Below, one piece after another: positions 5,513-39,687 of a DNA stretch of 64,000 nt. A program made the position numbers and the translations under genes. Source of the stretch: an uncultured virus (IMG/VR IMGVR_UViG_2061766007_000483) (taxonomy: Duplodnaviria > Heunggongvirae > Uroviricota > Caudoviricetes); the IMG/VR virus record IMGVR_UViG_2061766007_000483. The stretch is one strand, 5' to 3'. The stretch's first letter is position 1; every line of letters starts with the position of its first letter. Under the pieces are notes generated by a model. The model was not told where the DNA came from. It did not search any database and saw only the letters and a program-made list of their open reading frames with translations.

Positions 5513-5513
5513 A

Positions 5514-5885: not shown

Positions 5886-5970
5886 TTGTATGATATGTTC
5901 CAATGTTATTTATACAAACAAAAAAATCCTGCTAATAGCAGGATTCCATCTGATGTTGTTTTTTGACAGG

Positions 5971-7565: not shown

Positions 7566-7568
7566 ATC

Positions 7569-8663: not shown

Positions 8664-8675
8664 ATTGCGTTTTGT

Positions 8676-9533: not shown

Positions 9534-9535
9534 AA

Positions 9536-10195: not shown

Positions 10196-10226
10196 AGTTT
10201 TTTGTTTTGGTTAATAAAAAGGTTTC

Positions 10227-10775: not shown

Positions 10776-10819
10776 ATCTCCATTTAATCAGTCACTCATT
10801 TGAATATAATAAAAAATAA

Positions 10820-11755: not shown

Positions 11756-11758
11756 CGC

Positions 11759-12706: not shown

Positions 12707-12707
12707 A

Positions 12708-18700: not shown

Positions 18701-21070
18701 GTCGGTGACCCTCTTTGTTACGACGGAGATTGTGTTACTGTCAGCAATCTGACCCGATAAGTTTTCGTTGTCGGTGATTCTCATAGTATCTTTCCTTTAT
18801 TGAATATAATGAAAATTTTTCAATTTTTCAACTCATACATAGCAATTCCGTTCACGGAGTTGCTGCCGACCGCNNNNNNNNNNNNNNNNNNNNNNNNNNN
18901 NTCTCCGCGTCCTGTTTCTCAAATGGGATGTATGCGCTTGTGCATACAAGGTGGAGCGTGTTGTCAAGCGCGTATGCGGACTCTATTTCAAACACTCTTC
19001 TGAATATCGGGAGTGGAATCTCATTGTAACCGTCATATCTGAAAATCATCAGGTAGTTCACGCCAAACAACACATTGCCTGCGATTTCTGCGGACTTTTT
19101 TCCGAAGAAGTTTATGGTGAACGTGAACTCCGTCTTGACGGGAATCCCCCTGTTGAATATGGTTCTCGTGTACTTCGCGTGGACAAAGTTCCTGTCCTTG
19201 ATTTGGTTTGTTATGTTAGTGTTTTCAGTCAGTCTCATCCTCCTCAAAGATTTCAAGGTTGTAAGTGCAATGGTAGGTCTTGTAAAGGGCGACCCTGAAC
19301 TTCGTGCTGTTTATGATGTCCGCAAATGCGTTTGGGTTATTCGGTGGTGTACAGAAGCACGTCAGGACAAGTTTTCCTGATACGACGGACGCGGACTCAA
19401 TGAGGAATATCGCGGTGCCGATAGTACGGAAGGAGCGGTTGAATGTCAGGCACAGTCGGGAATTTTCAAGCGCGTATATGTAAATGTAGTTGTCTTGTGC
19501 GGAAAGCATCCTTGCCGCCTCTGCATAGTTCTTCCTGTCAATGCCGCAGTCGGGTGCGCTAATTCCACAATCTATGGCGAACGTGAATGATGCTGCGATG
19601 CCACGGTTAGCAAGTCTCCTCAACCCCGTGTATTCCACACGAACACCTTCACCTCTGACTTGTCTTGCTATATTCTCACTGCCCGTTATCCTCATATATT
19701 TCCAAGTTATAGGATTGGTTTATGGACGACGTATATGTTGAACAGTGGAAATTTTTCGTATTGAAGATTTCCACAAATTTATCAGGATTGGGAAACTTTT
19801 TATAACGGCACTTCACAACAAGTTTTCCAACTGTTGAAATAACCTCATCAAATTCAAATGAAATTGCACCAAAGTCTCCTACAAAGTTGTAAAACGACTT
19901 TGGATTGGACTCAAACCCAACAAAAACCATTGACGATTCCGAAAGCAAACAGGAAACCTTGTAGTATCTGTCATCGCGCTTTTTTGCTCTTACACGCGAG
20001 CAGGGTCTGATGTCACATTCTATTGTGAATGTGAACACGGAATAAAATAAACCATCTTTTTTGTTTTTCTTTTTTCCGTTGTATTCAACAGTCACATTCT
20101 CACCCTTGACCTGTCTTGCTATATTCTCACTGTCCGTTATCCTCATAGTTGTTTTATTGAATGTAATGCAAACCGATTATGTTCATATCTTTTCCTTCAT
20201 ATATCACGTTGCATTTCCACTGTGCAATGCTTATCTTTTCCGCGACAACCTCATCGTCGCATTCGTTCTTGGGCGTTGGACAACCCGTACTCCATACACG
20301 CAGGGAGCCGCAGTCGTATTCAACCGACTGTATGGTAAATGATGTTTTTTTTATCCCCGTGCGCCGCATCAGTTCCTTGTCAAGAAGTCCGAAAAGCATA
20401 ATGTATCCGCCGCCCGTTTTTTGGAACGCTTCCGCAATTTCGGACGACCTGCGCCCGAACGACTTTATGGTGAACAGGAATTTTGAGCGCACGGCAGTCC
20501 CGTTGTCAAACACCTTCCCGTAGTATTCGCACCTGACGTTATTTCTGTCAATCTGCTCACGCAGTCCATTGTTGTCCGTTATCCTCATATCGTTCTCTCC
20601 GCTATGTCCAAAAAATAGTTGCCTCCAAAAGTAGAAAGGGAACACTTGAACTCATAATCCCATATCAGTCTCGCGAGAGCGTTCGGGTTGCTGACATTAG
20701 CCATCTCACACAACACATACAGGTTTCCACTGCCTGCAAGGGCGCGTTTGACCAAGAGGTTCCGTATGATGCCTTGACCGCGACTGCCACAAATCGCCTC
20801 ATTCAGGCGGGAACCATATCTTGTGACAAATGTGATGTACGATGGTTTACTTTTAAGAAGTTCCGCCACATAAGATGGCTTGAACTTGCTGTTGCCTAAC
20901 TTCACCAAACCCATCTCCTTGTCATTCTCAATGCTGCCGTTTATGGTGAACACGAACTCGTGCATCGGGGTGTTGTTCTTGTCAACATACAAATTGATGT
21001 ATTTGGCATAGACCAAGTTTCCGTCGCTCTTGATTCCGTTTGTGATTTCCGTGCTTTCGGTCAGTCTCAT
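15742..21070 (-). other. tandem array of tag-family ORFs: 15742-16188, 16583-17023, 17007-17495, 17482-17940, 17937-18347, 18353-18784, ~18830-19238, 19225-19695, 19676-20146, 20154-20588, 20585-21070; plus untagged membrane ORF 16185-16547
   Basis: all start MR/K-L/I-T; most share an F(T/V)I..F(F/Y)G..S.EIA core; many stops overlap the next ATG. Confidence 0.75.
17341..17406. repeat. 33-bp in-frame tandem duplication inside a tag-family ORF
   Basis: cacg(t/a)ccttaatgtgaagttcgccttgctgaa twice, giving FSKANFTLR twice. Confidence 0.85.
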
Positions 21071-21402
21071 CTCTTTCGTTTCAGTTTTGGCAATATCTTC
21101 CTCAACACCCACTCCTTGTACGGGATGGTGTCGTTCTCGCTGTTCATAATCCTGTCTGCATCGGTCTTGTCCATCAGGTGAGTGCCGTCAGAAGGTTCCG
21201 CCCAATCGTCCCGTTTCGGGAGTCTGTACTCATAGATGTGTTCGTCAATCTCCTCGCCCTCATAATGGGTGACTGCATTGCGAACGATGTGGTTGTTCCT
21301 GTTGGACACCTTGCGCCTGCGGTTCTTGTAGAACCTTGTATTCTGACTGCCGAACCCTCCGCAGGTTCCAACTTTCACATATTTCTTGTATGACTTGCTC
21401 AT
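21067..21402 (-). CDS. basic hypothetical protein
   Basis: 111-aa ORF starting MSKSYKK, coupled to neighbours. Confidence 0.6.
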   Translation of the reverse strand: MSKSYKKYVKVGTCGGFGSQNTRFYKNRRRKVSNRNNHIVRNAVTHYEGEEIDEHIYEYRLPKRDDWAEPSDGTHLMDKTDADRIMNSENDTIPYKEWVLRKILPKLKRKR

Positions 21403-21405
21403 CTC

Positions 21406-21885
21406 TTACATCTCCACGTTTACACATATCTTTTTAAGGAGTTCCACAATGCGGTCGTGCCACTCCTTGTTCCAAATGAACCCCCTCGTGTTGTCAAGCG
21501 AGAGGTCAATGCAACCAGCGTATGCGGTGTAGGGTTGCCAATCATTCTTTTCCTCATACGCATAGTTGACGCCCACACGGGAGTTTGTGTTGCCCGCCCT
21601 GTCACCGCGCATACGGATTTCTCCGTCAAGCGTCGGGTAGGTCTTGTGCTGTTGGTAGTATAGTTTGTCCGACAGGAGTTCGGATTTCAGTTCCGTCCAA
21701 AGTTCGTCACCCGCCTTTATTCGGCACCACCTTGTCACGGTTCCGCTCGTGTTGATGCCACCGATGCCTGACGACCCGTCCAATTCTGGTGATGACAGGT
21801 TGTGTTCAAGGCAGAAGTTGACAATCTTTTCAAGGAACACCACGTTCATAGCGATACGTTCCTTCGGTGTGAATATAGGTTTCAT
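21406..21885 (-). CDS. hypothetical protein
   Basis: ATG MKPIFTPKE just downstream of an ATTATATTCAAT motif at 21898-21909. Confidence 0.6.
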   Translation of the reverse strand: MKPIFTPKERIAMNVVFLEKIVNFCLEHNLSSPELDGSSGIGGINTSGTVTRWCRIKAGDELWTELKSELLSDKLYYQQHKTYPTLDGEIRMRGDRAGNTNSRVGVNYAYEEKNDWQPYTAYAGCIDLSLDNTRGFIWNKEWHDRIVELLKKICVNVEM

Positions 21886-21922
21886 AGTTTCTCTTTTATT
21901 GAATATAATAAAAACTCTCCTT

Positions 21923-24192
21923 TTATTGAATATAGTCTGTGATTTTCGGTTCAGTTCGGCAGATGTAGATGCGACCCACGTACATCCCGTCCACATTGAC
22001 GCCGTGCCACTCGGCGTACTTGTGCAGTTTGTTGTTAAGGATACGCTTGTATTTCCACACGGGAAGACGTTTTATGTCACATTGTGGATAGCGACCGAAT
22101 ATCAGCGTATCATAACTTATGAAAACCCCCATATTGACGTCCTTTCTTGTGGCGGNNNNNNNNNNNNNNNNNNNNNNNNNNNNNNNNNNNNNNNNNNNNN
22201 NNNNNNNTCGTCTTTTCCGAATGAGACATATATGGTTGAGTCGGCGTTCACACACCGCTCGTCAAACACGAACTTCCTCCGCTCGTTGTCCCTATAGACA
22301 CGTGGGAGGTTCATTGCCAATGTGTCCTTTATGCTTGTGTCAGTCAGTCTTGCCATAGGTCATAAATTGTAATCTTGTTCAAATGGGTATTCAAATCTCT
22401 GCACGAAATACGGTATCTCCGATTTCGTGTGTACTGTGAAATTCTCAACTTTTATTTCGTCAAGGTTAATCGGGACATACTTGTCAAGATACTTGCGGAG
22501 GTTCTTGTATGCACGCATCGTTATCTCATACTCATAATACTTGTAGTCCTTCATCAATCTGCTGTGCAGTCTGCAAAAAGAGACGTCAATGTTTTTCAGG
22601 ACATTGACATCATCTAATATCACCTTTAAGTCATCCGAAGCGTCATTGTCGCTGTCATAGATGATGCCGATATGGAAATCATAGTGATTGGTGTAGTATT
22701 TTGACTTGAATGTGACATAAAGCACATAGTTGCCCTCAATGCAGGTTTGGTCAAAGAAGTATTTTCGGTATTTACTCTCCTTGAACCCTCTCGGCAGTTT
22801 GGGGAGCATTGTGTTTCCAATATCCGATGTGGTGATTCTCGCCATTTTCTAATAAGTGTTTTTGTAAACTGACAATGGCATAATGTATGTGTGGACAAGG
22901 TAATAGTTGTCTGTGTCAAAGTCAGATATATCATTGATGTATCTCATTATTTGCATTCTCATATCACTTTGGCGAACGAGGTCATAACTGCTTTCAATAT
23001 CATAATAGTTTGCCCGACAATGTATGACTTCATCAATGATTTGTTTAAGTGCGCTTGTCACATTTCTATTGTCATACAATACGCCTATGATGAATGTCTC
23101 TTTGCTGTAAACGTCATCAAAGATGAACCATATTATGTTGTTTGGTTCCGTCACGCAGTCATACAGGTAGGTCGTGTTCTCTGATTCATCCAAAATTTTC
23201 GGAAGGCGGAACCCGTTTCCTTCAATTATGTTCGTTTCGGTCAGTTTTCCCATAGTTTGTGTTCAAAAATTCTCACATAGTCCATATATACAAAGTTGTC
23301 CATAATGGATGACTCAATCAGTTTGAGGTCGTCAACCGCATACTCCCCGCAGTCACACAGGTATTGGCGCACGAGTTTCTCCGTAGTCTTGGCGTTCTCA
23401 CGGGCGGATGTGCTTGCATAATAGGTTTCCAATGTCTCATAGTATATGGAGTCCATAAGCACCCGTCCGCCTGTTTTCTCACTTGACTTGTGCAGGTCAA
23501 TCAGTTTTCTCAAGAGTTCCGACTTTGTGATTGTCGCACTGTCAAACAGCACCCCGCTCACATAGTTCACGCCTTTGTCCGACCTGAACACGCAATACAG
23601 CAGATACCTTCCCCTTTCGGCGTCGGGGTCATACCTGAACTGCCGTAGCGGGGTGTTCTCAAACCCGTCGGGGAGTTTCTTTATGCACCCATCCAAAATC
23701 GTGTCCCCGTTTGTTGTTATCCTTGCCATATCTTTATTTTTACGGAATCATCACTTTCAGTTATCTTTCTATCTTTGCTTGGAACGGTTCGCACATCTCA
23801 TTGATGTCATATTCGTTGCAGGAGATTGACACTCCATAAAGGTACCTTTTCTTCCCGTCAAATTCAATACCTGTTATTTCAGTTATGTAGTCACACAATT
23901 TTTTGCAGGCGAGGTTATAGTCTGTGAAGTTGTACGGGAAGAATACCCCGCCATCCTTGTATTCAATTTCTCCGAACAGACTTGTTATCACATCATTCAG
24001 GTATGATGTCATATCCTCCTTGTTGAACAGGATGCGGATTGTTTTCATCAACTCCTCGTTGTGTTCCACATAGGTCGCATATAAGCAGAAGCGGAAGTTT
24101 GCGCTGCCGTCCGAAATGATGGCGGCGTCAGCATAATATTTCACGTCCTTGCCCAATGCGTCCGATATGTTTTCCGTGTCGCTTATTCTCAT
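21923..24192 (-). other. tandem tag-family ORFs: 21923-22356 (across N gap), 22360-22845, 22849-23253, 23241-23729, 23761-24192
   Basis: starts MARLTD, MARITT, MGKLTE, MARITT, MRISD; first four share LP...E...D..Y..F....G...D. Confidence 0.7.
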
Positions 24193-24328
24193 CAGTTGTC
24201 ATTTAATTGAATATAATAAAAAATCCCGACATTTTTAACATCGGGAAGTTTATAATTGGAAAAAACTGTAAAACTACAAGAGTAAAAGGGAATAATTCAA
24301 TTTTTTTATAAGAGAGTATATACAAGAA

Positions 24329-24868
24329 CTAATAAATTACTGCTTCATACCCGTTGTCTTCATTGATTTCTTCAGTCAGAAACGTATCAGACACAAAATC
24401 CATAAACGCCGAATATACATAGTCCCTCGTTAAAGGTGATTTAATTCTGTTAAAATCCTTTACGAATTTCAAATAATCGCATTTTTCGTCAAAAAAAAGT
24501 CTGAACTGCTCAATGTCGTTTCTGTTATACAAGTCATCGTCATTTATCCAACCTTCCGCATTGACAACTATTTTATATGATGTTGAGTAAAGGTTCATAA
24601 GACTCTTGCTGTTATCGTCATAGTTTTCTATATCGTCCCATTCCTCAAGATTGAACACCGCCTCTTTGCAATACGCCACATCAAGAATCGGGTCATATCC
24701 CTCACCACAATCGTCATAAAGTTCATCAGGATACGGTCTCTCGCTCCCTAACTCATACAATTCAAGATTATTTTTCAATTTTGAATTATTGTCAAGTTTG
24801 GATTTTATCAACCTGTCAAGAACTGTGCTTTCATTGACCATCTCGTCAATCCTCTTAATATGTATCAT
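24329..24868 (-). CDS. late hypothetical protein, HIKRIDE-type N-terminus
   Basis: MIHIKRIDEMVNE; TATAAATA at 24894-24901. Confidence 0.65.
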   Translation of the reverse strand: MIHIKRIDEMVNESTVLDRLIKSKLDNNSKLKNNLELYELGSERPYPDELYDDCGEGYDPILDVAYCKEAVFNLEEWDDIENYDDNSKSLMNLYSTSYKIVVNAEGWINDDDLYNRNDIEQFRLFFDEKCDYLKFVKDFNRIKSPLTRDYVYSAFMDFVSDTFLTEEINEDNGYEAVIY

Positions 24869-24926
24869 AATTTCAAACTTATATTTCAGTATATATTTAT
24901 AACAATACTAAATGGATAACTCCTAT

Positions 24927-25211
24927 TTAATTGGCATAGTATCCGTTGCTGTTTTTAAGGTAGTCCGTAACATCATAGACAACATTGTCGGGGAAGATGT
25001 GCATAACATCAAACAGTTCTCTTGTGCCATCAATATCGGTTGCACCTTCATAAAGGTCATATATTTTCATCCATCTGTCACCAGCGGTGGCAAGGTCGCC
25101 ATCTTCATAGGCATTCATCAGTTCACTTGCAAGTTTAACCGCTTGTTTATGCCTGACTGAATTGAATTTTGTAGGCATATTCATTTCATCCACTCTCTTG
25201 ATATGTGTCAT
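24927..25211 (-). CDS. late hypothetical protein, HIKRVDE-type N-terminus
   Basis: start MTHIKRVDEMN. Confidence 0.6.
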   Translation of the reverse strand: MTHIKRVDEMNMPTKFNSVRHKQAVKLASELMNAYEDGDLATAGDRWMKIYDLYEGATDIDGTRELFDVMHIFPDNVVYDVTDYLKNSNGYYAN

Positions 25212-25221
25212 AGTTCTGTTT

Positions 25222-25791
25222 TTATTCTTCTGCGCAGAAGTCACAGATTGTGTCTATTGCCTTGTCAAGCACCTCCGCGATTATTTTCTCAAAGTTCTGT
25301 TTTCCGAGATTGTCTTCAAGTTCGTCCTTCAACTCCATCCCCGCATATCTCTCGTTCCAAGTTTTCTTTATTGTGTCAGAGAACATCTCCCAATCAAACA
25401 CATCGTTCTCCTCGACCTCCTTCACAACCTTGTTGAGTTCCTCATAGTCATCACAACTGTCAACGGTAATCTCATAGTCATTCCTCTCCATATTGAAGTA
25501 GTGGATTCTCATTCCGACCTTGACGTCACAGATGTCATCCATATAGTTCCCGTCCTCATCGTCCATATAGAACTCAAACTTCAACTCAATGTCAAAGTTC
25601 GTGTTGTTGTTCTGCGGTAGGGATATGAAGTCATCAAGCGTACCTCTTTTCTCCCTGTCAAAATAATGCCATTTCTCTCCGTCCCATTTGCACCTGATGC
25701 CAATTCCCGCAACCTCAATCTGATTGTGTCTTATTCGGGTGATGTGCATCTTTGCCTCATTCACCATCTCGTCTATGCTCAATACTCTCAT
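25222..25791 (-). CDS. late hypothetical protein, paralog of 26469-27014
   Basis: MRVLSIDEMVNE; C-terminal ELEDNLGKQNFEKIIAEVLDKAID; TATAAATA at 25815-25822. Confidence 0.65.
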   Translation of the reverse strand: MRVLSIDEMVNEAKMHITRIRHNQIEVAGIGIRCKWDGEKWHYFDREKRGTLDDFISLPQNNNTNFDIELKFEFYMDDEDGNYMDDICDVKVGMRIHYFNMERNDYEITVDSCDDYEELNKVVKEVEENDVFDWEMFSDTIKKTWNERYAGMELKDELEDNLGKQNFEKIIAEVLDKAIDTICDFCAEE

Positions 25792-25974: not shown

Positions 25975-26461
25975 ATGATTTACGAGACATTGGACAAGAG
26001 AATCGCGACGGCGATGATGGAGGAGAAGGACTCCAAAGAAAAACTGAAAACAAACTTTTGGAAGTCGGTCAAGACCGAGATGGTCAACGCCGTGCATAAG
26101 GGGGTGAAACTTCCAGATGACGAAAAGGAGGTTGAAATCCTGCGCTCTATGCTGAAACGCTCACGCAACGCGGCGGATGAGTTTGCGAAATCGGACAGCG
26201 AAATTGCCGCCGCCAACCGAAAGGTTTGCGAGTATGAGGCGGGNNNNNNNNNNNNNNNNNNNNNNNNNNNNNNNNNNNNNNCTCATCACGACCAATGCGG
26301 TGCTGAACCTCATCAAGGAAAAGACCGAAAGCGACCCGAACTTCAACGTGAAGATGTTGCAGCGTTATACGAAGGACATCATCGCAAAGGTGAAGGAGGT
26401 CTGTCCGACCGCCAACAACGGAGTAATCGCAAGAGTAATCAAGGAAACATCATCAAAATAA
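25975..26461 (+). CDS. GatB/YqeY-domain protein (frame change across N gap)
   Basis: LDKRIATAM..K....KTE....DDEK..ILRSMLKR...AADEF pattern; C-terminus continues in another frame after the gap (..IARVIKE). Confidence 0.6.
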
Positions 26462-27932: not shown

Positions 27933-30293
27933 ATGGCACAACACAAATCAAACAACGAAGAATCAGCAATCAACAAGACTTTCATTTTCAAGGCAAAATG
28001 CGATAAGAACGATGTCATATCGTTATGGGAACCAGCGGCAAAGGAATACTGCGACTATTATAACAAAGTGAGCAAGTGGATTGCCGACAACCTCATCACG
28101 ATGAAAATCGGCGACCTTGCGCAATATATCACTAACCAAAATAGTAAATATTATACTGCCGTTACTAATAAAAAGAAAAAGGATTTACCTTTATATCGTA
28201 TCTTCCAAAAGGGATTCAGTTCACAATGTGCCGACAATGCTTTGTATTGTGCCATTAAATCAATCAATCCCGAAAACTATAAAGGAAACTCACTTGGTAT
28301 TGGTGAAAGCGATTATCGCAGGTTTGGTTACATCCAAAGTGTTGTCAGTAATTTCCGCACGAAAATGTCCTCACTTAAAGCAACAGTAAAATGGAAAAAA
28401 TTTGATGTGAACAATGTTGATGATGAGACATTGAAAATCCAAACAATTTATGATGTTGATAAGTACGGAATTGAAACCGCCAAAGAGTTCAAAGAGTTAA
28501 TTGAAACACTTAAAACGAGAGTGGAAACACCCCAACTCAATGATACAATCGCTCGTTTGGAATGCTTGTGCGATTATTACTCAAAAAATGAGAAAGCAAT
28601 CAACAATGAGATTGAAACAATGGCGATTGCTGATTTGCAGAAATTCGGTGGATGCCAAAGAAAAAGTTTGAATGCTTTCACAATCCATAAGCAAGATTCA
28701 CTTATGGAAAAAGTCGGGAACACCTCTTTCAGACTTCAACTGCCATTCCGTAAAAAAACATACGTCATCAATCTGCTTGGAAATAGACAAGTAGTTAATT
28801 TCGTTAATGGCAAAAGAGTTGATTTGATTGATATTGCCGAAAACCACGGGGATTTGGTTACATTCAATATTAAGAATGGTGTATTGTTTGTACACCTTAC
28901 CTCACCGATTGTATTTGATAAAGATGTGCGCGACATTAGAAATGTGGTTGGCATTGATGTGAATATCAAGCACAGTATGCTTGCCACGTCAATAAAGGAT
29001 GTTGGGAATGTCAAAGGATACATCAATCTTTATAAGGAACTCTTAAATGACGATGAGTTTGTTTCAACTTGCAATGAGTCTGAACTTGCTTTATATCGCC
29101 AAATGTCCGAAAATGTCAACTTTGGCATTTTGGAAACCGATAGTTTGTTTGAAAGGATTGTGAACCAATCAAAAGGCGGATGTTTGAAGAATAAACTCAT
29201 TCGCAGAGAACTTGCAATGCAAAAAGTGTTTGAAAGAATCACGAAAACCAACAAAGACCAAAACATTGTAGATTATGTGAATTATGTCAAAATGATGCGT
29301 GCAAAATGCAAGGCATCTTACATCTTGAAAGAAAAGTACGACGAAAAACAAAAGGAATACTATGTGAAGATGGGATTTACCGATGAATCAACCGAAAGCA
29401 AGGAAACAATGGATAAAAGAAGGGAGGAATTTCCTTTTGTCAATACTGATACCGCAAAAGAACTTTTGGTTAAACAGAACAACATCAGACAAGACATCAT
29501 CGGTTGCAGAGACAATATTGTGACATACGCATTCAATGTTTTCAAGAATAACGAATATGACACATTGTCTGTTGAATATCTTGACAGTTCACAATTTGAC
29601 AAAAGAAGAATAGCGACACCGAAATCTTTGTTGAAATACCATAAATTTGAGGGCAAGACAAAAGATGAGGTTGAAAATATGATGAAGAGTGAAAAATTAT
29701 CCAACGCTTACTATACGTTCAAATATGAAAACGATGTCGTATCGGACATTGATTATTCCGATGAGGGAAATTTGAGACGTAGTAAACTCAATTTCGGTAA
29801 TTGGATTATCAAGTCAATACACTTCGCCGACATTAAAGATAAGTTTGTGCAACTCTCCAACAACAACAAAATGAACATAGTATTCTGCCCATCCGCATTC
29901 TCCTCTCAAATGGATAGTATCACGCACACCCTTTACTATGTGGAAAAAATCACGAAAAACAAAAAGGGAAAGGAAAAAAAGAAATATGTGCTTGCCAACA
30001 AGAAAATGGTTAGAACACAGCAGGAAAAACATATCAATGGTCTTAATGCCGATTATAATTCTGCTTGTAATCTTAAATATATTGCACTTAATGATGAGTT
30101 GAGAGACAAAATGACTGACAGGTTCAAGGCATCTAAAAAAATCAAAACTATGTATAACATACCCGCATATAACATTAAGTCCAATTTCAAGAAAAATTTG
30201 AGCGCCAAAACAATTCAAACTTTTAGAGAACTTGGACACTACCGTGACGGAAAAATAAATGAGGATGGTATGTTTGTTGAAAACTTGGAATAA
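27933..30293 (+). CDS. cas12: compact phage type V CRISPR effector, Cas-lambda family RuvC nuclease (786 aa)
   Basis: RuvC-I VVGIDVNIKH, RuvC-II LSVEYL, RuvC-III LNADYNSACN; motifs I recall from Cas-lambda (YRRFGY, KFGGC.RK, SLLKYHK, IKSIHFADIKD, SQMDS, EKHINGLNADYN); CRISPR array 127 nt downstream. Confidence 0.93.
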   Translation: MAQHKSNNEESAINKTFIFKAKCDKNDVISLWEPAAKEYCDYYNKVSKWIADNLITMKIGDLAQYITNQNSKYYTAVTNKKKKDLPLYRIFQKGFSSQCADNALYCAIKSINPENYKGNSLGIGESDYRRFGYIQSVVSNFRTKMSSLKATVKWKKFDVNNVDDETLKIQTIYDVDKYGIETAKEFKELIETLKTRVETPQLNDTIARLECLCDYYSKNEKAINNEIETMAIADLQKFGGCQRKSLNAFTIHKQDSLMEKVGNTSFRLQLPFRKKTYVINLLGNRQVVNFVNGKRVDLIDIAENHGDLVTFNIKNGVLFVHLTSPIVFDKDVRDIRNVVGIDVNIKHSMLATSIKDVGNVKGYINLYKELLNDDEFVSTCNESELALYRQMSENVNFGILETDSLFERIVNQSKGGCLKNKLIRRELAMQKVFERITKTNKDQNIVDYVNYVKMMRAKCKASYILKEKYDEKQKEYYVKMGFTDESTESKETMDKRREEFPFVNTDTAKELLVKQNNIRQDIIGCRDNIVTYAFNVFKNNEYDTLSVEYLDSSQFDKRRIATPKSLLKYHKFEGKTKDEVENMMKSEKLSNAYYTFKYENDVVSDIDYSDEGNLRRSKLNFGNWIIKSIHFADIKDKFVQLSNNNKMNIVFCPSAFSSQMDSITHTLYYVEKITKNKKGKEKKKYVLANKKMVRTQQEKHINGLNADYNSACNLKYIALNDELRDKMTDRFKASKKIKTMYNIPAYNIKSNFKKNLSAKTIQTFRELGHYRDGKINEDGMFVENLE

Positions 30294-30420
30294 TTCTGTA
30301 TATACCAATTAGAATTGAAAAAAAAACGCTCTTTGACATATTGTTTTCTACATAAAAACAAGATTTTACACAACGCAATACATCATAAAGTGTTGCGTTA
30401 TAACAAATAACAAAAATTCT
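30294..30420 (+). promoter_or_regulatory. CRISPR leader
   Basis: AT-rich non-coding region between cas stop and first repeat; TTGACA at 30333-30338; hairpin aacgcaatac/gtgttgcgtt at 30372-30399. Confidence 0.6.
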
Positions 30421-31212
30421 ATTGTTGGAATATCACTTTTGTAGGGTATTCACAACACATAATGGAATAGTTTGTGCCAAAATAATATTGTTGGAATATC
30501 ACTTTTGTAGGGTATTCACAACGAAATGCCAAGACCAACACTTACGCCTTTGATTGTTGGAATATCACTTTTGTAGGGTATTCACAACGCAAACCAAATC
30601 GGGGAAAGACCACGCACATTGTTGGAATATCACTTTTGTAGGGTATTCACAACTGTATTGCAGTCTTTTAATGTCGTCAGATGAATTGTTGGAATATCAC
30701 TTTTGTAGGGTATTCACAACCAATGATATGTTCAATGCCAACTACAGCATATTGTTGGAATATCACTTTTGTAGGGTATTCACAACGTGATTTCCTTATC
30801 GAAGTCAAACTTCTCCATTGTTGGAATATCACTTTTGTAGGGTATTCACAACTCGTTCATATACTTGACAAAGGCGGCATTGATTGTTGGAATATCACTT
30901 TTATAGGGTATTCACAACGGACGGGAAAGGAAGATGTCAGACGTTTTTATTGTTGGAATATCACTTTTGTAGGGTATTTACAACGCCGAGGTGGTGAATG
31001 AAATATAAAAAAAGAATTGTTGGAATACCCGTTTTATACGGTATTTGCAACTGCAAGAAGGATGCTAAATGTTTGATGTGTATTGTTGGAATACACGTTT
31101 TTTACGGTATTTACAACGGAGTCAAGGCGCTGTTCAAAATCCACGAAATTGTTGGAATACCCGTTTTATACGGTATTTACAACGAGTGCAAGTTTTACAC
31201 GGCATTTACAAC
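30421..31212 (+). CRISPR. CRISPR array: 12 repeats of 36 nt, 11 spacers of 29-31 nt, plus a degenerate partial repeat at 31184-31212
   Basis: ATTGTTGGAATATCACTTTTGTAGGGTATTCACAAC at 30421, 30487, 30553, 30618, 30685, 30751, 30817, 30883, 30949; variant ATTGTTGGAATACCCGTTTTATACGGTATTTACAAC-type at 31016, 31082, 31148. Confidence 0.99.
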
Positions 31213-31291: not shown

Positions 31292-31702
31292 ATGGCACAC
31301 ATTAAAAAAATTGACGAAATGGCAAGACAAACTGTTTCACTTCGTTCTGACTCATTGTTCAAAAAAGCGTTTGAGGAATTTGAAAAGGAGTTGGAAGAAG
31401 TTCTCAAATCGCACAACAATATCATTTATTGTGGAGGTGATGATGACTTCAATGACACAATCGCATATTTTCAGTCAAAGGACGACGGACACATTGAAAC
31501 TTCAATGGTGAGCGCAATTCGTCTCAAAAATGATGAAGTTGAAATTCTGTCCTATGATAATTCTGTTCTTACACCCGAACAGGTGTCCGCCGTTGATGAT
31601 GACGATTGGATTCTTCTCAATGATGATTTTTACAGCGACCTTATGCTGTGGGAAACCCTGTTGAGCATCTATACTGATTTGAAATCAAGGAACGACCTCT
31701 AA
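31292..31702 (+). CDS. late hypothetical protein, HIKKIDE-type N-terminus
   Basis: MAHIKKIDEM; late promoter upstream. Confidence 0.7.
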   Translation: MAHIKKIDEMARQTVSLRSDSLFKKAFEEFEKELEEVLKSHNNIIYCGGDDDFNDTIAYFQSKDDGHIETSMVSAIRLKNDEVEILSYDNSVLTPEQVSAVDDDDWILLNDDFYSDLMLWETLLSIYTDLKSRNDL

Positions 31703-31829: not shown

Positions 31830-32846
31830 TTATTTTTCACTCCATTCGGGGTGTTCTTCAATCATTGCCAATGCTTCGTAGATGTCAATGACCTCATATA
31901 CATTAAGGTTTTCGGCGTCATATTTCGGATTTTCATCAGTGTCAAGGGTGAATGACTTGCCGTTCAGTTTCACGCTTGAAACGCTGCTTGACACATACCC
32001 ATAGTCATTGTTGCTTACCGATACCATAATGGGGTCAATGTATCCGTCATATTCAAATTCTCCGATGTTGATTTCCCCGTTGTGACGTTTGAGAATTTCA
32101 ACGATGTTGGCGGTGAGTTTTTCACGCAACATACCCGCTTGTTTATTAAATGCCGCGATTTCGTTTTCAATTCTTTGGTCTCCGAACTCTTCATTCACAA
32201 GATTCTCATTCATATAACGTGGTGATTTTCTGAAAAACGCTTTTTGTTCTTCGGGGGTCATCACAATCGGGTTTTCGTATCCTCTGCTTTGTATCTCATC
32301 CAAGATTTCCGCATATTCATCGGGTGTGGCGGGAACTGTGTTCATCTTAATCACATTCAGGTCACAGTCGCTGTGCTGACCGATTATGTCATAGCACATC
32401 ACGAAATTTCTCGGTTTATAATCACCTGTCGGGTCGCTTAACAAATCAGGAAACACGGCGGTCACAACACCCTTGAATTTTGCGGGTTTCATAATCTTTC
32501 TGAACATCACCCTGTCATTCACGATACTCTCATTTATAGGTTTATCGGGATTGAAGAAAAACTCTTTGTTGTCCTCATAGTAGTCCCTGTCACCATAGTA
32601 ATCACAAACCTCATCTTTCAATGTTTCTGAAAACAGGGTATCAACTTCAAGTTTCAGTGCCGCTTCGTATGCGTCGTTGAATGACCTGTATTCTTTCGGA
32701 CGGATATTTGAAAAACTTTCAATCGGTCTGTCACTGATGTAAACTTCGTGATAACCTTTGTAAAGGTAGCATTTTTTTAATTCATTGCTGCTAACCCCAA
32801 TTTCACTGGGTGAATTAAACTCGTCAATTTTTTTGATGTGAGCCAT
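31830..32846 (-). CDS. late hypothetical protein, HIKKIDE-type N-terminus
   Basis: MAHIKKIDEF; internal INE, MNE, VNE sites between apparent modules. Confidence 0.7.
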   Translation of the reverse strand: MAHIKKIDEFNSPSEIGVSSNELKKCYLYKGYHEVYISDRPIESFSNIRPKEYRSFNDAYEAALKLEVDTLFSETLKDEVCDYYGDRDYYEDNKEFFFNPDKPINESIVNDRVMFRKIMKPAKFKGVVTAVFPDLLSDPTGDYKPRNFVMCYDIIGQHSDCDLNVIKMNTVPATPDEYAEILDEIQSRGYENPIVMTPEEQKAFFRKSPRYMNENLVNEEFGDQRIENEIAAFNKQAGMLREKLTANIVEILKRHNGEINIGEFEYDGYIDPIMVSVSNNDYGYVSSSVSSVKLNGKSFTLDTDENPKYDAENLNVYEVIDIYEALAMIEEHPEWSEK

Positions 32847-32850
32847 AGTT

Positions 32851-33081
32851 TCAATTTATATTTTCTATATTTATAAGAGTCATTTCAAGACTAAATGGAT
32901 AATTCCGTATAAATCTCTTTATCGCAGGTCTTGACGCAACGGGATAGAACCAATAACCGCCATATTCAAACGGTTGCAAATCTTCGTTGAAATCATATAT
33001 TGAGGGATGGTTGGCGTTCATATACTGCTTGACACCAAGTTGGGTGTTTTGCGCCATCTCATCAATTTTCAATATCTTCAT
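32851..33081 (-). CDS. short late-type ORF, possibly truncated
   Basis: MKILKIDEM; 3' end runs into the promoter of the next gene. Confidence 0.5.
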   Translation of the reverse strand: MKILKIDEMAQNTQLGVKQYMNANHPSIYDFNEDLQPFEYGGYWFYPVASRPAIKRFIRNYPFSLEMTLINIENIN

Positions 33082-33103: not shown

Positions 33104-34516
33104 TTACAAATTCACGGGGTCGGTCACAAGGTAACTTGTGGTCGGGTCTATTGAGACCATATTGCCAATCTGACCGATGAAGGAATTGCCCATAAACACA
33201 TTGTTCTTGTCGCCATCAACGCTCTTGACCTTGAAGATGACGTTCTTGTAGGTCACCTCGTTGAACTCAACCTTCGTCTGCACGAGATAACTCCTTGTCA
33301 TATTGTCGTTCTCAATCATCGTTCCGATGACGGGTTTTGTCACCATCACGTTCCCGATTGCGAACGTCACCTTGTTGTTGCGCTCGTCGTATGCGGCAGT
33401 CCTTGTCTCAATGACACTGATGTCGTTGTTGGTGTCAAACCTCACGTCAGTCACGAAGTCGCCCTCATCAAACTTTATGGTCGCTGATTCGGCGGCACCG
33501 ATGATGGTGGCGTTGTTGTTGATGTACTTGAACTTCTTGAGGAAGTCAAAGATGTAGTCAATCGGAGGGACGTCCGAAACGGAGGTGATGCCTTTGACAC
33601 CAGGTGAGGCGTTGACCTCAATGATGTAGTTGTCACCCGTGTTCTTGTCGGCAATCATATCCACACCGCACCATTTGCACTTCACCGCTGCGGCGGTCTT
33701 GATGGCGAGTTCCTTTTGGTCGTCGCTCAACGTGAAACTCTCAATGGTTCCGCCGAGACTGAAATTCGTCCTGAAATCCCCGTCAATCTTGTTGCGGCGC
33801 ATAACACCGATAATCTCATAGTTCTCTGGGTTGTTGCTCAACCTTCCGTAGGACTTGTTGAAAACGTGGATACGGAGGTCATAATCCGACTCAATCTTGT
33901 TCTGCAAAAGGATTTCCGCGTTCGGGACAAGTTTGAACATCGTTTCAAGTGTTGATTTCAGACTCATATAGGAGTCAATGATGAACACACCGATACCTTT
34001 CTTGCCGTCAAGGATTTTGCACACGACAGGGAAGTTTCCGCCAACCCTGTCAACCTTCTTATGCAAACGGTCAATGTCGTCCGCAGTCACGACGGTTGTG
34101 AGGGGGGTCGGGATGTTCTCCGCCGAAAGCACTTTGTAGGTGGTGTACTTGTTCTCGCAGTTCTCATAACTTTCAAGGGTGTTGAGGACGAAGAAACCGC
34201 GATACTCAAACTCCTTCAAAAAGTTCTTCGTGCGTGAGTTCTTCAAGATGGTGAGTCTTGGCAGGACGATGGTGTTGTCAATGTTCACCTCAAACTCATT
34301 GTCAATGCAGACCACCTTGAAATTCTTGTCGTTAATCTTTTCAAGAACCGCCGTTTCGGGGTCGGCGTACAGGAACTTGATTCCAGTCTCCTTGCATTTT
34401 TCCTTCAACATTTTGCAGAAGGTGGAGTTGGTGATGGAACTCAAATATAACAACTGAACCCCGTTCACCTTCTTTGACTCCGTTATCAACTGATATTGCT
34501 GTGTAAATGATTTCAT
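33104..34516 (-). CDS. RimK-family ATP-grasp ligase with C-terminal RimK-associated protease-like domain
   Basis: NKYTTY..IPTPLT, FPVVCKILDGKKGIGV, YDLRIHV, FRTNFSLGG, CGVDMI, IEVNASPG; C-terminal IIGAAE..RFDTNN. Confidence 0.85.
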   Translation of the reverse strand: MKSFTQQYQLITESKKVNGVQLLYLSSITNSTFCKMLKEKCKETGIKFLYADPETAVLEKINDKNFKVVCIDNEFEVNIDNTIVLPRLTILKNSRTKNFLKEFEYRGFFVLNTLESYENCENKYTTYKVLSAENIPTPLTTVVTADDIDRLHKKVDRVGGNFPVVCKILDGKKGIGVFIIDSYMSLKSTLETMFKLVPNAEILLQNKIESDYDLRIHVFNKSYGRLSNNPENYEIIGVMRRNKIDGDFRTNFSLGGTIESFTLSDDQKELAIKTAAAVKCKWCGVDMIADKNTGDNYIIEVNASPGVKGITSVSDVPPIDYIFDFLKKFKYINNNATIIGAAESATIKFDEGDFVTDVRFDTNNDISVIETRTAAYDERNNKVTFAIGNVMVTKPVIGTMIENDNMTRSYLVQTKVEFNEVTYKNVIFKVKSVDGDKNNVFMGNSFIGQIGNMVSIDPTTSYLVTDPVNL

Positions 34517-34591
34517 TGTTCTTCAATTTGATTTGTTATATTTATACGAGTTCTGACAAGGCATATAAATAATGGGAAGATATTTTCTGCT

Positions 34592-34789
34592 ATGGACAAC
34601 AGACTTGAACGGATAAGACTTTACAAGGGGAACGTGATGGACTTTGACTCCTACATAAAGGACAGGGTTGAACAGACCAAGAAGGAGAACTCCGTCACCG
34701 ACAAGAAAAGAAAGGACAGGTTGAAAAAGAAACTTGACAAGATGAACGAGTCTGACGCAAGATACATCAATGATATATCAGACAAATAA
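34592..34789 (+). CDS. small late hypothetical protein
   Basis: 65-aa ORF after TATAAATA at 34564, followed by a hairpin terminator near 34806-34837. Confidence 0.5.
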   Translation: MDNRLERIRLYKGNVMDFDSYIKDRVEQTKKENSVTDKKRKDRLKKKLDKMNESDARYINDISDK

Positions 34790-34867
34790 GTGACATAATG
34801 ATAATAAAAAAAACCGCCTGAAAAGACGGTTTTTTTTATTCTTGTGAAACAAATGTTATTATTACTA

Positions 34868-35287
34868 TTAAAGAAGTTCACTTGTTTTCATTGACATATT
34901 TTCAAAGAAATGCTCATTCATAAAATCTATGAAATCATCATATATGATTTTTTGTGTTTCTGCATCAAGTTCATTCCATTCCATTTCAGTTGGTATTTCT
35001 ATGTCATTATGGTTGAATAGTACATATAAATCAATAGAATTGTTTTTGTTGTTATATGTTACAATATCGTAATCATCACAGTTGAATTTTTTCTCAATGT
35101 AATCGTTATTCAAACCATCTATTGCAATTTTGTTGTTGTATCCGCTTAAACAAGTTTCAAAAAAATACATTATTGTAATAATTCTTTCAGGAAGTTCAGA
35201 TATTGAAACTTTTGCGTGTTTTCTATGCCAATTAGTTATATATTGACTACTATTTAGCATCTCATCAATTCTCATTATGTGTGCCAT
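34868..35287 (-). CDS. late hypothetical protein, HIMRIDE-type N-terminus, AT-rich
   Basis: MAHIMRIDEMLN; TATAAATA at 35309. Confidence 0.6.
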   Translation of the reverse strand: MAHIMRIDEMLNSSQYITNWHRKHAKVSISELPERIITIMYFFETCLSGYNNKIAIDGLNNDYIEKKFNCDDYDIVTYNNKNNSIDLYVLFNHNDIEIPTEMEWNELDAETQKIIYDDFIDFMNEHFFENMSMKTSELL

Positions 35288-35323
35288 ATTCAAATGTATA
35301 TTTTTCTTTATTTATACGGAAAA

Positions 35324-35352
35324 AAGAAACCCGCCTGAAAAGGCGGGTTTCT
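35324..35352 (-). terminator. intrinsic terminator
   Basis: agaaacccgcct-gaaa-aggcgggtttct with adjacent A tract on the + strand. Confidence 0.8.
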
Positions 35353-35371
35353 CATTTTGTCTTTGTGTGGT

Positions 35372-35830
35372 CTAATCAACCTCCATTTGGTTTTCGGGTT
35401 CGTCGTCATCGTCATCGGCGACTCTCTCCTTCATAATGCTCTCGTGCATATTCTCAATTTTTTCAAGTTTCTTTTCAAAGTCACGGGGAGGTTGTCTTTT
35501 CGCGCATCCGTTCACCACACATCTTGACCATTCAAGGTCGTTTATCACGAGTCTCTGCTGTGACTCAACTTCAACCGCGAGATAGAGTTTGCCTTGAAGG
35601 TCGGCAATCTTTTGGCGGCATCCGTTCAGTTCTTCCTTTGCTTCATTGTAGAGGCGTATCCATTCGTCGCTTGCTGTCTTTTGGTTCTCCAAGTCCTTTG
35701 CGATGACCGCCTTTTCCGCCGCCTCCGCCTCTGCCGCTTTGAGGCGCTTGTTTTGTTTATGGAAAAGAACGCCACCCGTTCCGACGATTAACGCGAGTAA
35801 ACTTGAAAATGCGATTATAACTTCAGTCAT
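35372..35830 (-). CDS. single-pass membrane protein with coiled coil (possible lysis-associated protein)
   Basis: N-terminal hydrophobic helix, coiled coil, C....C..R.PP. Confidence 0.5.
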   Translation of the reverse strand: MTEVIIAFSSLLALIVGTGGVLFHKQNKRLKAAEAEAAEKAVIAKDLENQKTASDEWIRLYNEAKEELNGCRQKIADLQGKLYLAVEVESQQRLVINDLEWSRCVVNGCAKRQPPRDFEKKLEKIENMHESIMKERVADDDDDEPENQMEVD

Positions 35831-35874
35831 TTCCTGTGGGTATATTCTTCAAATACAGGAAATGTTTGCTTGGA

Positions 35875-38034
35875 TTAGTACCCAAGCAAACCTTTCTTTG
35901 TACGTCCGAGAACGCTGCTGATATGGTCGTCCTGTTTGTTCTTGTCTTCCGACCACATCCTTGCGGAATCGGTGTCAACACGTTCTACAACGAGGGTCTT
36001 GTCGCGGAGGTCGCGGGTTGACCAGAAGTATTCAATCTCGTTGGTTGTGTTGATTTTGTAGAATTTTGACTCGTTCAGGATTTCCTGCTTTCTCCTGTCA
36101 GAAAGTGCGTTCCATCTGTCACGATAGATTTCAGGCATATTCTCAACGAGGTCAAGTCCCTTCTTTGACTCATAGACGCTCTTCCAAACGATGTTCGCCT
36201 GTTCCTCGTTTCTGACGTGTGCTGCGTTCATCGCTTCGGTGATGATTGCCTTCGTGTTGTTGTCAAGTGAGTTGAACTCATTCTTGCGACCTTCGGAGAG
36301 GAAGTTCAGGAAGTTGTCAGGTTTCACCTGTTCGCTGTGCTTGTTAAGGAGAGCGTCAAGTTTTTCGGTGATTGCTGACTTATAATCGTCATTGGATTTG
36401 ATACCGCTGCGAATTTGCGCTGCCATCTTGCGGGATTCCGTCACAGATTTGTTTGCCGCGAATGTGTTGCTGCTTTCGTTGATTGCCGCAACCTTGTTCT
36501 CGTTCACAACTTTCACATTGTTGTGCATATTGTTATGCTGCATACCTTCAACAATGCGGTCAGTCCTGTCAAAGTTTTCACCGAGTTTCTCTGCGAGATA
36601 ATCGTTGTGAGCGTAGTTCTCGTTGAGTTTCTCTGCGAGATAGTCGTTATGAGCGTAGTTGCGTTCAAGTTGCTCGGCAAGATAGTCGCTGTGGTCGGCG
36701 GTCTTTTGGAGTTGTTCGGCAAGATAGTCGCTGTGGTCGGCGGTCTTTTGGAGTTGTTCACCGAGATACTCACTGTAATTCATACCCCTCTCCAAGTTCT
36801 CTGCGAGATAGTCAGCATATTTTGCAGTCGTCATAACCTTTTCTGCAACATACTCTGAATATGCGATGCCCTTTTCAAGTTGCTCCGCAAGATAGTCGCT
36901 GTGGTCAGCGGTCTTTTGGAGTTCCTCTGCGAGATAGTCGCTGTGGTCAGCGGTTCTTTGCACCTGCTCGGCGAGGTAGTCGCTGTGGTCGGCAATCTTC
37001 TGCATCTGTTCTGCGAGATAGTCATTGTGACTGATGTTGCCGTCAAGTTTCTCGGCAAGGTACTCACTGTAATTGACACCGTTTTCAATCTGCTCTGCAA
37101 GATAGTCGCTATGGTTGCCCACCTTCTCAATCTGCTCTGCAAGATAGTCATTGTGACGGTTGCTCTTTTCAAGTTGTTCGGCAAGATAGTCGCTATGGTC
37201 GCTCACCTTTTGGAGTTGCTCTGCAAGATAGTTCACATAATCACCGATTTGCTTGTTTTCTGCAACAACTTTCGGGTTCGGCATCTCAATTTTCTGAATC
37301 TTGCTTTCATTCAATGAAATTGTGTTCTTCAGTTCGTTGATGCTCTTTTTGACATTCTCAATGACGCCTGCAATGTATTCGGTGTATTTTTGGAAGTCCT
37401 CTACATTAAGCGTTTTGGATTCGTTGGTGTTCATATTTTTTACTTTATTATTATCATTATTTATATCATCGTCGGAAACGTAGTCACATTCATAGATGTA
37501 AACATTGTCCATATTTCCAAAACCGTATGCCTCGTTCACACGTTTGAGTTCTGCGTTCTCAAATCCAGGGTCGGCAACAAGGTCATAGGTGAACAGTTTT
37601 TCAAGCGTCACCTTTCCCGTTTGTGGGTTAATCTGACCTGCGGCGCGGGATGAGATGTGCAACGGAATACCGTCACGCACAAGTGCCTGTGCCTGCTTTC
37701 CTGCGTCAGTGTTCAAAAGTCGGATTTTTCCGATAACCCTGTCGTTCTGTTCGTCATATTCCAATTTCTCAATGACGTGGGAGGCGTTCTTCAACGACAC
37801 GTCAAAATTGACGGGGTGGTCAAGTTCGCCAAGAAGGGTGTGACCTTCAATCTTCGGGAGCAGTTCGTTCATCTTCGGGATGAAGTCGCTCGCCTCATAG
37901 ATACGCCCGTTGCGGTTTCTCACCTTGAACTCCGTGAAAATGCCTTCAAGATAGATGACATCGGAATTGCCGCCAGACATTTTGAGGTCGCTCATCGCCT
38001 GCTCAACAATCAATAATGTTTTTTTCGGTTTCAT
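35875..38034 (-). CDS. prohead core protease (T4 gp21-like) fused to scaffold-like repeat region
   Basis: YLEGIF..NRNGRIY..LGELDHP..SHVI..ISSRAAG..TYDLVADPGF; then 16 repeats of 14 aa; probable start MKPKK at 38034. Confidence 0.88.
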   Translation of the reverse strand: MKPKKTLLIVEQAMSDLKMSGGNSDVIYLEGIFTEFKVRNRNGRIYEASDFIPKMNELLPKIEGHTLLGELDHPVNFDVSLKNASHVIEKLEYDEQNDRVIGKIRLLNTDAGKQAQALVRDGIPLHISSRAAGQINPQTGKVTLEKLFTYDLVADPGFENAELKRVNEAYGFGNMDNVYIYECDYVSDDDINNDNNKVKNMNTNESKTLNVEDFQKYTEYIAGVIENVKKSINELKNTISLNESKIQKIEMPNPKVVAENKQIGDYVNYLAEQLQKVSDHSDYLAEQLEKSNRHNDYLAEQIEKVGNHSDYLAEQIENGVNYSEYLAEKLDGNISHNDYLAEQMQKIADHSDYLAEQVQRTADHSDYLAEELQKTADHSDYLAEQLEKGIAYSEYVAEKVMTTAKYADYLAENLERGMNYSEYLGEQLQKTADHSDYLAEQLQKTADHSDYLAEQLERNYAHNDYLAEKLNENYAHNDYLAEKLGENFDRTDRIVEGMQHNNMHNNVKVVNENKVAAINESSNTFAANKSVTESRKMAAQIRSGIKSNDDYKSAITEKLDALLNKHSEQVKPDNFLNFLSEGRKNEFNSLDNNTKAIITEAMNAAHVRNEEQANIVWKSVYESKKGLDLVENMPEIYRDRWNALSDRRKQEILNESKFYKINTTNEIEYFWSTRDLRDKTLVVERVDTDSARMWSEDKNKQDDHISSVLGRTKKGLLGY
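36583..37255 (-). repeat. 42-nt / 14-aa coding tandem repeat (QKTADHSDYLAEQL consensus), 16 units
   Basis: read directly from protein and DNA (gcaagatagtcgctgtggtc recurring). Confidence 0.9.
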
Positions 38035-38173
38035 ATTTCGCGCAAAATATTTTTCTTTTTCTTCAAACTGCCGNNNNNNNNNNTCAAAGAGTCGTTTGCT
38101 GAATATGTATGCTTTCATTGTATGTTGAATTTTTTCATCAGGTATTCCCTCTTTTGCTCATACGGAAGTGTAT

Positions 38174-38830: not shown

Positions 38831-38858
38831 TGGATGAAATGGTTAGAGTTGTTTTAGT

Positions 38859-39680: not shown

Positions 39681-39687
39681 AATGTGT

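Follow-up and report, generated by a model that had tools for sequence, protein, structure and literature searches.

A Cas-lambda CRISPR-Cas locus with rapidly changing spacers on a large phage of ruminant-gut bacteria

The stretch of DNA analysed here, 64,000 nucleotides (nt) long and called the window throughout, belongs to an uncultured virus of the Caudoviricetes (IMG/VR record IMGVR_UViG_2061766007_000483) and holds a compact CRISPR-Cas locus in which a single type V effector gene is followed on the same strand by an A+T-rich leader and a CRISPR array (Table 1). It is phage DNA, with genes for a T4-type prohead protease, a clamp loader, an ATP-dependent DNA ligase, a Gp23-like fragment and nucleotide metabolism, and the locus lies on a large phage of ruminant-gut bacteria. 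An initial annotation, made from the letters alone, had described an open reading frame (ORF) of 786 amino acids (aa) with the RuvC motifs GIDVN, SVEYL and NADYN and no CxxC motif and, 127 nt behind it, an array of 12 repeats of 36 nt with spacers of 29 to 31 nt. Our coordinates agree with this description: the three motifs hold the catalytic residues D342, E548 and D707, the 13 cysteines of the protein form no CxxC motif, and an end of the locus at 31212 takes in a 29-nt degenerate remnant of a terminal repeat. The effector had also been assigned to Cas-lambda, a type V family that goes by Cas12l in PDB entry 8DC2 and by Cas12n in some reviews, and this call is borne out by the sequence, fold and catalytic triad of the protein, by repeat architecture and phage context, by the linkage of gene and array in relatives, and by the failure to find an anti-repeat.

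Table 1. Positions of the Cas-lambda locus features in the window.
Feature	Position	Strand	Basis or remark
Cas-lambda (type V) effector gene, 786 aa, ATG start	27933..30293	+	ORF, phmmer, AlphaFold2 model with Foldseek
RuvC-I Asp342 codon (GIDVN)	28956..28958	+	aligned to Cas-lambda2 Asp324; invariant 29/29
RuvC-II Glu548 codon (SVEYL)	29574..29576	+	aligned to Cas-lambda2 Glu526; invariant 29/29
RuvC-III Asp707 codon (NADYN)	30051..30053	+	aligned to Cas-lambda2 Asp680; invariant 29/29
A+T-rich leader between gene and array, 127 nt	30294..30420	+	gap from stop codon to repeat 1
10-bp hairpin in leader, ~20 nt upstream of repeat 1	30372..30399	+	candidate gene terminator or leader element
CRISPR array, 12 full 36-nt repeats and 11 spacers of 29-31 nt	30421..31183	+	repeat coordinates, fold, covariation
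Spacer 8, only spacer common to the window and L008 arrays (L008 spacer 16, trailer side)	30919..30948	+	array comparison
Degenerate 5'-truncated terminal (13th) repeat, 29 nt, trailer end	31184..31212	+	79% identity to a variant repeat over the latter's last 29 nt (3' side)

Structures are available for two Cas-lambda orthologs, at least five in all, including those of Cas-lambda2 (PDB 9IZM and 9IZP-9IZS) reported by Omura et al. 2025 (PMC12141684). Among the chains of solved structures, phmmer aligned the window effector in one single stretch each to Cas Lambda2 (9izp_A; E = 3.5e-145, query residues 31-747) and to CasLambda (8dc2_A; E = 2.7e-134, query residues 1-748), and the roughly 40 C-terminal residues (748-786) lie beyond the range aligned to either chain. 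An AlphaFold2 model built on the family alignment, with a predicted local distance difference test score (pLDDT) of 85.9 and a predicted template modelling score (pTM) of 0.75, had only Cas-lambda chains as its top five Foldseek matches, at target-normalised template modelling (TM) scores of 0.89 (9izm_A), 0.84 (9izr_A), 0.77 (8dc2_A), 0.77 and 0.75. The E-values against the Cas-lambda2 chains 9izm_A and 9izr_A were about 1e-59 to 1e-61; the next family was Cas12o1 (E = 3.4e-9), and the TnpB chain 8iaz_A scored E = 3.4e-5 (TM 0.21-0.38). Identity in the Foldseek alignments is 38% to Cas-lambda2 and 32% to Cas-lambda1, and BLASTP gives 40% to the database sequence P0022, which is itself near Cas-lambda2 (1217 bits). 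No model in Pfam, NCBIfam, PHROGs or PADLOC matched the effector.

A quick maximum-likelihood tree, which is not a careful phylogenetic search, separates Cas-lambda2-like sequences in a clade of 8 rows from the window effector in the other main clade of 21 rows, with a value of 99 on both clades in the Shimodaira-Hasegawa-like approximate likelihood ratio test (SH-aLRT). The window ortholog belongs to a well-populated subclade that takes up 16-17 of the 29 database clusters, and none of the 28 database relatives is near Cas-lambda1, the best being P0020 at 418 bits. The effector is thus a full-length Cas-lambda protein with an intact catalytic triad, and the locus is a new ortholog of an already described family rather than a new kind of system; that the family had been described before was also stated, correctly, in the initial annotation.

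The RuvC centre of Cas-lambda2 consists of Asp324, Glu526 and Asp680 (PMC12141684), and the phmmer alignment sets D342, E548 and D707 of the window effector against these residues. The deposited Cas-lambda2 chain carries 10 extra N-terminal residues and its residue 334 is Asp324; in the D324A mutant chain 9izm_A, an Ala stands in the same column as D342. The invariance of the triad refers to a set of 29 sequences made up of the window protein and its 28 database relatives. Five residues of Cas-lambda2 recognise a TTR protospacer adjacent motif (PAM) according to the same source (PMC12141684), of which three are identical in the window effector (N102, F131 and Q254), a fourth is conservatively changed (S126 for Thr113) and the fifth is replaced (H252 for Ile237). 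A T-rich, TTR-like 5' PAM is our best guess for this enzyme.

The repeat tells a similar story. On the + strand it is predicted to fold into a two-part hairpin with G4:C36 as its outermost pair and a U-rich apical loop (free energy -10.1 kcal/mol, z -3.66), which matches the description of the Cas-lambda2 CRISPR RNA (crRNA) scaffold as a 36-nt, repeat-derived element in which G(-33):C(-1) closes a stem of 5 bp, with a distorted stem-loop and a U-rich loop and without a pseudoknot (PMC12141684). Correspondence extends to length, the G(-33):C(-1) pair, the two-part stem and the U-rich loop of the predicted fold. In a set of 34 distinct repeats that includes those of the window and its relatives, the outer stem (GUUG/CAAC) hardly varies and the inner stem shows covariation: pairing holds in 80.1% of cells, compared with 38-51% when the partner is slid, both sides change in 9 of the 13 stem pairs, and none of 500 shuffles reached the observed covariation score, figures that are somewhat favoured by taking the tested structure from the window repeat itself. 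RNAalifold predicted no structure from the unrefined repeat alignment, owing to register shifts. In Cas-lambda2 the G(-33):C(-1) pair is read base-specifically by Arg271 and Asn625 (PMC12141684); the window residue aligned to Asn625, N644, is invariant, and the invariant outer pair of the repeats fits a reading of this kind.

Repeats in the window array start 65-67 nt apart, and the spacers measure 30 nt in eight cases, 31 nt in two and 29 nt in one. The first seven repeats are identical, the eighth and ninth are each one base off, and the last three (10-12) show 6-7 base differences, as counted by eye, with compensating changes in the stem, so that the hairpin is kept at -9 kcal/mol vs -10.1 kcal/mol for the main repeat. 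The partial repeat at the trailer end abuts repeat 12 with no spacer in between and has its homologue in the degenerate last repeat of L008, a relative's locus with a 97.6% identical effector, where the sequence further downstream is also the same. Orientation, the degenerate repeats at the far end and the conserved leader all lead us to read the array on the + strand with the repeat first. The leader is identical to that of L008 over the stretch compared, and a sequence block together with a T run is common to relatives down to 63% effector identity (alignment A3); a sigma-70 promoter scan of the leader found no more sites than in shuffled sequence. In the RNA library X19, one 260-nt contig fell on 29736-29984 inside the gene and the array was without cover, and carry-over of DNA is possible in this library.

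Two repeat types within one array occur both in the window (30421-31183) and in the relative L014, whose array (10463-11145) switches midway between two quite different types. Such mixing suggests either recombination between arrays or an effector that accepts widely differing forms of the solvent-exposed stem-loop. Elsewhere in the 64-kb window, matches to the repeat or its reverse complement reached at best 22-23 of 36 positions, within the 20-24 reached by 30 shuffles, and the search for an anti-repeat gave a best complementarity of 23 of 36, again inside the shuffled range of 20-24.

Relatives of the effector form 29 clusters among 5.8 billion proteins, none of them named by its source and the best 98% identical. 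GenBank phages held no relative, and a protein search of IMG/VR returned the closest at 69% identity and did not find the window effector itself. Scans of viral and metagenome contigs gave 31 loci on 26 distinct contigs, some of them viral, up to 339 kb in length and bearing terminal repeats, to which a genome scan added L034, a 45-kb contig binned in a metagenome-assembled genome (MAG) of the Bacteroidales with an effector of 47% identity. Where DNA downstream of the gene was available, an array was present in every case (26 of 26 distinct contigs), starting 57-227 nt after the gene and built from 36-nt repeats with a period of about 66 nt; the contig L016 ends inside the effector gene and stands outside this count. 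Flanking genes are common only to the 98% relative L008, which indicates that gene and array travel as a self-contained cassette without a conserved accessory gene. Sampled sequence words of the locus were found (share at least 0.20) in 15 sequencing runs from 11 studies labelled as bovine, sheep or other gut metagenomes. Among four runs examined, X4 and X6, which come from different studies, have contigs that contain the gene at about 98% identity; where the contigs of X1, X4 and X6 leave stretches of the array uncovered, nothing can be concluded.

A few array features of relatives may be recorded alongside. The 236-kb relative G002 carries, at about 201.1 kb and some 120 kb from its Cas-lambda locus, an opposite-strand mini-array of 2-3 Cas-lambda-type repeats (L036 6055-6227), and the repeat scan of the 64-kb window revealed no comparable second array. 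Adjacent duplicated spacers occur in L008 (6283-6380, where spacers 9 and 10 are identical) and as a near-identical pair in L004 (9271-9362).

Most near-identical loci have identical arrays, and two pairs of loci differ. The effectors of the window and L008 are 97.6% identical, and the arrays have a single spacer in common out of 11 and 17, respectively, with seven spacers unique to the window and 15 unique to L008 on the leader side of it. L029 and L030, whose effectors are 98.6% identical, have three trailer-side spacers in common in the same order and differ mainly at the leader end; they also share two mid-array spacers in swapped order. In a contig from X4, a 30-nt insert that equals L008 spacer 15 connects repeats 1 and 8, possibly a third arrangement. 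In both informative pairs, spacers have been exchanged far more quickly than the effector has diverged, and the newest spacers lie at the leader; turnover at the leader end is the expected trace of ongoing spacer acquisition.

Genes that could carry out such acquisition did not come to light on the phage side. None of the 87-88 window ORFs of at least 70 aa matched Cas1, Cas2, Cas4 or a transposase (Pfam at E<=1e-5, PADLOC at 1e-3), in a scan that left out ORFs below 70 aa and 428 masked N bases; the absence of cas1, cas2, cas4, transposase and anti-repeat from the 64 kb, noted in the initial annotation, therefore holds for these ORFs and for a repeat scan no better than its shuffles. The window contains no tRNA genes either. 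In the whole viral records of five relatives, Cas1, Cas2 and Cas4 were each above the cut-off in none of the five; one of these records, 339 kb long with direct terminal repeats, is rated 100% complete, and a single sub-threshold Cas2-like stretch in the relatives' records carries three stops. Spacer turnover combined with the lack of adaptation genes in a complete relative suggests acquisition in trans as the simplest reading. The idea in the initial annotation that host Cas1-Cas2 is borrowed is supported indirectly by this turnover on phages that lack adaptation genes, but no donor module was identified.

As for hosts and donors, neither the 185,579 species genomes scanned nor IMG/VR contained the window repeat pattern. 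A double-repeat pattern defined by the termini alone picked out three Bacteroidales MAG contigs, namely L034 with its Cas-lambda gene, L035 with an array at the contig edge adjoining a WYL protein, and L033, a scaffold that encodes Cas9 (1318 aa), Cas1 and Cas2 next to 55 repeats of 36 nt with 30-nt spacers (4032-13000). The L033 repeats start with GTTG and end with CAAC, as do Cas-lambda repeats, and have little else in common with them; because the shared ends were imposed by the search pattern, this likeness is a lead only. A host of the phage within the Bacteroidales is probable, and this link too is a lead only. Tentatively, and with more doubt than confidence, we propose that Cas-lambda arrays keep gaining spacers through a host integrase that uses the phage leader and repeat, with Bacteroidales Cas9-Cas1-Cas2 modules of the L033 type as a candidate class of donor, and that the mixed repeats of the window and L014 record recombination between arrays when phages infect together. 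Should this hold, one particular CRISPR type of the host would be required by a phage CRISPR system and would also shape it.

Searches for the targets of the array covered several collections. The 11 window spacers had no protospacer in the window or in L001-L007 at up to 6 mismatches, and 155 unique spacers from all arrays gave only matches of 15-16 nt against every collected locus. Against GenBank phages the array produced eight records at E 0.09 and 86-89% identity, as expected by chance; 72,556 plasmids gave no match, the whole records of five relatives matched in the repeats only, and a 24-nt prefix of spacer 1 had no match in IMG/VR. Partial matches of 21-49 nt in 401 Bacteroidales genomes reached E 2.8e-4 or weaker per genome. 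With no protospacer found, no PAM logo could be drawn.

Taken together, the observations are best explained by a Cas-lambda CRISPR-Cas locus on a large ruminant-gut phage whose effector processes its own crRNA and cuts the double-stranded DNA (dsDNA) of rivals and whose spacers are installed in trans, an account that we regard as probable with good confidence. By analogy to Cas-lambda1 and Cas-lambda2, the array would be transcribed on the + strand from the leader, and the effector would bind each repeat hairpin and use its RuvC site to cut the precursor crRNA (pre-crRNA) about 16-18 nt into the downstream spacer by a ruler mechanism, so that the remaining 12-14 nt of each 29-31-nt spacer would be discarded. 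The resulting crRNA of about 53 nt would guide RuvC cleavage of dsDNA beside a T-rich 5' PAM, probably TTR as in those two orthologs. Phage biology suggests that the targets would be rival phages, or mobile elements of another kind, that share the host, and new spacers would be installed in trans, most simply by host Cas1-Cas2 in view of their turnover on a phage without adaptation genes of its own.

Several points weigh against this account. The fifth PAM contact departs from the reference, as H252 in the window effector replaces Ile237 of Cas-lambda2. The window and L008 arrays also differ on the trailer side, with three spacers found only in the window and one only in L008, which implies that deletion and recombination contribute to turnover too, and contigs assembled through 36-nt repeats can be chimeric, a caution that concerns the X4 contig. 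No convincing protospacer was found for any spacer, hence the data provide neither targets nor a PAM. Host modules with matching repeats were not found, and the MAG that holds L034 has its Cas1 beside an unlike repeat of 30 nt. The window is only 64 kb of the phage, and adaptation genes could lie elsewhere in the genome. Finally, when new Cas-lambda homologs were assayed, five of six processed pre-crRNA and only two of six cut dsDNA in vitro (PMC11576732), so that an intact triad does not guarantee DNA cleavage.

This last result also speaks for an effector that binds and processes crRNA, cuts DNA poorly or not at all, and acts by target binding, either silencing its targets or blocking the replication of rivals: the disparity between processing and cleavage held in the assay used there, and Cas12 types that bind without cutting exist (PMC11641405). 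Against such a binder stand the D-E-D triad, intact and invariant in the 29 sequences, and the dsDNA cleavage described for Cas-lambda1, Cas-lambda2 and EphcCas-lambda (PMC12141684, PMC11576732). The triad fits processing alone as well, since the same RuvC site does both. On balance we think such an effector unlikely and keep to one that cuts DNA.

An array aimed at the host chromosome or at host defence genes, in the service of host takeover rather than of competition with mobile elements, would be compatible with spacers for which no target of any kind was identified, and Vibrio phage ICP1 is known to carry a CRISPR system directed against an element of its host (reference 7 in PMC12141684). 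We consider it very unlikely, as no whole spacer occurs at near identity in the 401 Bacteroidales genomes; the plasmid collection, likewise, has no match to the array.

TnpB is a RuvC protein of about 400 aa with a zinc finger that sits beside a transposase or transposon ends and has no CRISPR array. That the window gene encodes such a nuclease of the insertion sequence (IS) type, or that the locus is a decaying relic with a fossil array, has in its favour the RuvC fold in common with TnpB and is scarcely credible for a 786-aa protein with full recognition (REC) lobes, no CxxC motif and a TM-score to TnpB far below the 0.84-0.89 to Cas-lambda2, encoded by an intact ORF in a window without a transposase, with an array kept in all relatives with downstream DNA and with spacers that turn over between near-identical loci. 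Grouping with TnpB and loss of array linkage in relatives, findings that the initial annotation had named among those that would tell against its call, were looked for, and what we saw was the low similarity to TnpB and the constant presence of arrays described above. Two candidate identities were rejected as such: TnpB of the IS200-IS605 type, on the size of the protein, the lack of CxxC, the array, the missing transposase and the low TM-score to 8iaz_A, and Cas-phi (Cas12j), of which no chain appeared among the phmmer matches at E<=10 or among the Foldseek matches listed.

The rest of the window has features of its own. Long head-to-tail runs of small ORFs of about 125-190 aa without a Pfam or PHROG match occupy 15745-25791 (-) and 47907-55522 (-) and fall into paralog families of 7, 7, 4 and 3 members and several pairs at 21-53% identity. 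A divergent adenylosuccinate-synthetase-like (PurA-like) gene at 7572-8663 (-) matches PHROG 1211, which has a PurZ-type annotation (E 6.8e-34), and Pfam Adenylsucc_synt (2.5e-19), with only weak PurA or adenylosuccinate synthetase matches in the PDB (E 2.9e-7); if the phage makes a modified purine, this would bear on the distinction of self from non-self by its own nuclease. The radical S-adenosylmethionine (SAM) protein at 45601-46392 (-) matches PADLOC models of prokaryotic viperins with its N-terminal 100 residues (E 9.6e-13), and a small ORF at 56141-56728 (+) has a domain of the ADP-ribosyltransferase exoenzyme type (Pfam E 1.4e-9; PHROG 3895). Around the prohead protease gene (35878-38118), the region 33107-42108 (-) encodes RimK-like and TupA-like ATP-grasp enzymes and glycosyltransferases. 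Three ORFs shortly after the array, at 31292-31702 (+), 31830-32846 (-) and 32851-33081 (-), begin with nearly the same N-terminal peptide (MAHIKKIDE- or MKILKIDE-) and differ in the rest; the first of them is conserved in L008. The masked bases form seven N runs (391-640, 5187-5214, 18874-18901, 22156-22207, 26244-26281, 38074-38083 and 57799-57820; 428 bases), one of which falls in an ORF 1.7 kb upstream of the effector.

For basic biology the locus adds little, as Cas-lambda has been known since 2022 and has solved structures, editing data and dozens of members. At about 40% identity to characterised enzymes and with a changed PAM contact, however, the window subclade could have a different PAM or activity, which makes this ortholog a sensible entry for a compact-editor screen. 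Near-identical loci with different spacers offer, moreover, a natural setting in which to study how a phage array gains spacers when adaptation genes are lacking, and the recurrence of the locus in cattle and sheep gut metagenomes of separate studies means that acquisition can be followed in public time series.

Cas-lambda was reportedly first described by Al-Shayeb et al. in Cell in 2022, as citing papers have it. CasPEDIA lists twelve members (PMC11576732), and the review PMC11641405 counts 55. The CHOOSER study found 11 Cas-lambda homologs of 735-798 aa on viral contigs of IMG/VR, with repeats like the published ones, and among characterised members EphcCas-lambda comes from bovine rumen contigs and was shown to cleave dsDNA (both PMC11576732); the window ortholog or its 98% relative might already be listed among the published members. 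Cas-phi, found in huge phages, is an analogue outside the family, being likewise a compact phage type V effector (about 750 aa) that uses its RuvC site for crRNA processing, needs no tracrRNA (trans-activating crRNA) and comes from loci without adaptation genes (in part PMC12141684; for the window effector these functions are presumed by analogy). The two have no match in sequence and belong to different families. Cas-lambda1 (PDB 8DC2), which is reported to have a TTR PAM, RuvC-dependent pre-crRNA processing within the spacer and no tracrRNA (PMC12141684), resembles the window effector in its alignment over residues 1-748 and in fold (TM 0.77) and differs from it in the low Foldseek identity of 32%. 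Cas-lambda2 is the closest characterised counterpart. The window effector departs from it in sequence (about 38-40% identity), length (786 aa vs 741 aa), placement in the other main clade of the tree, His in place of Ile237 and a predicted repeat fold whose stem junction is one unpaired A vs a junction of two adenines; it resembles Cas-lambda2, by contrast, in a full-length alignment, a TM-score of 0.84-0.89, the RuvC triad, a 36-nt scaffold and three of five identical PAM contacts, and both have no signs of a tracrRNA and derive from phages or the ruminant gut.

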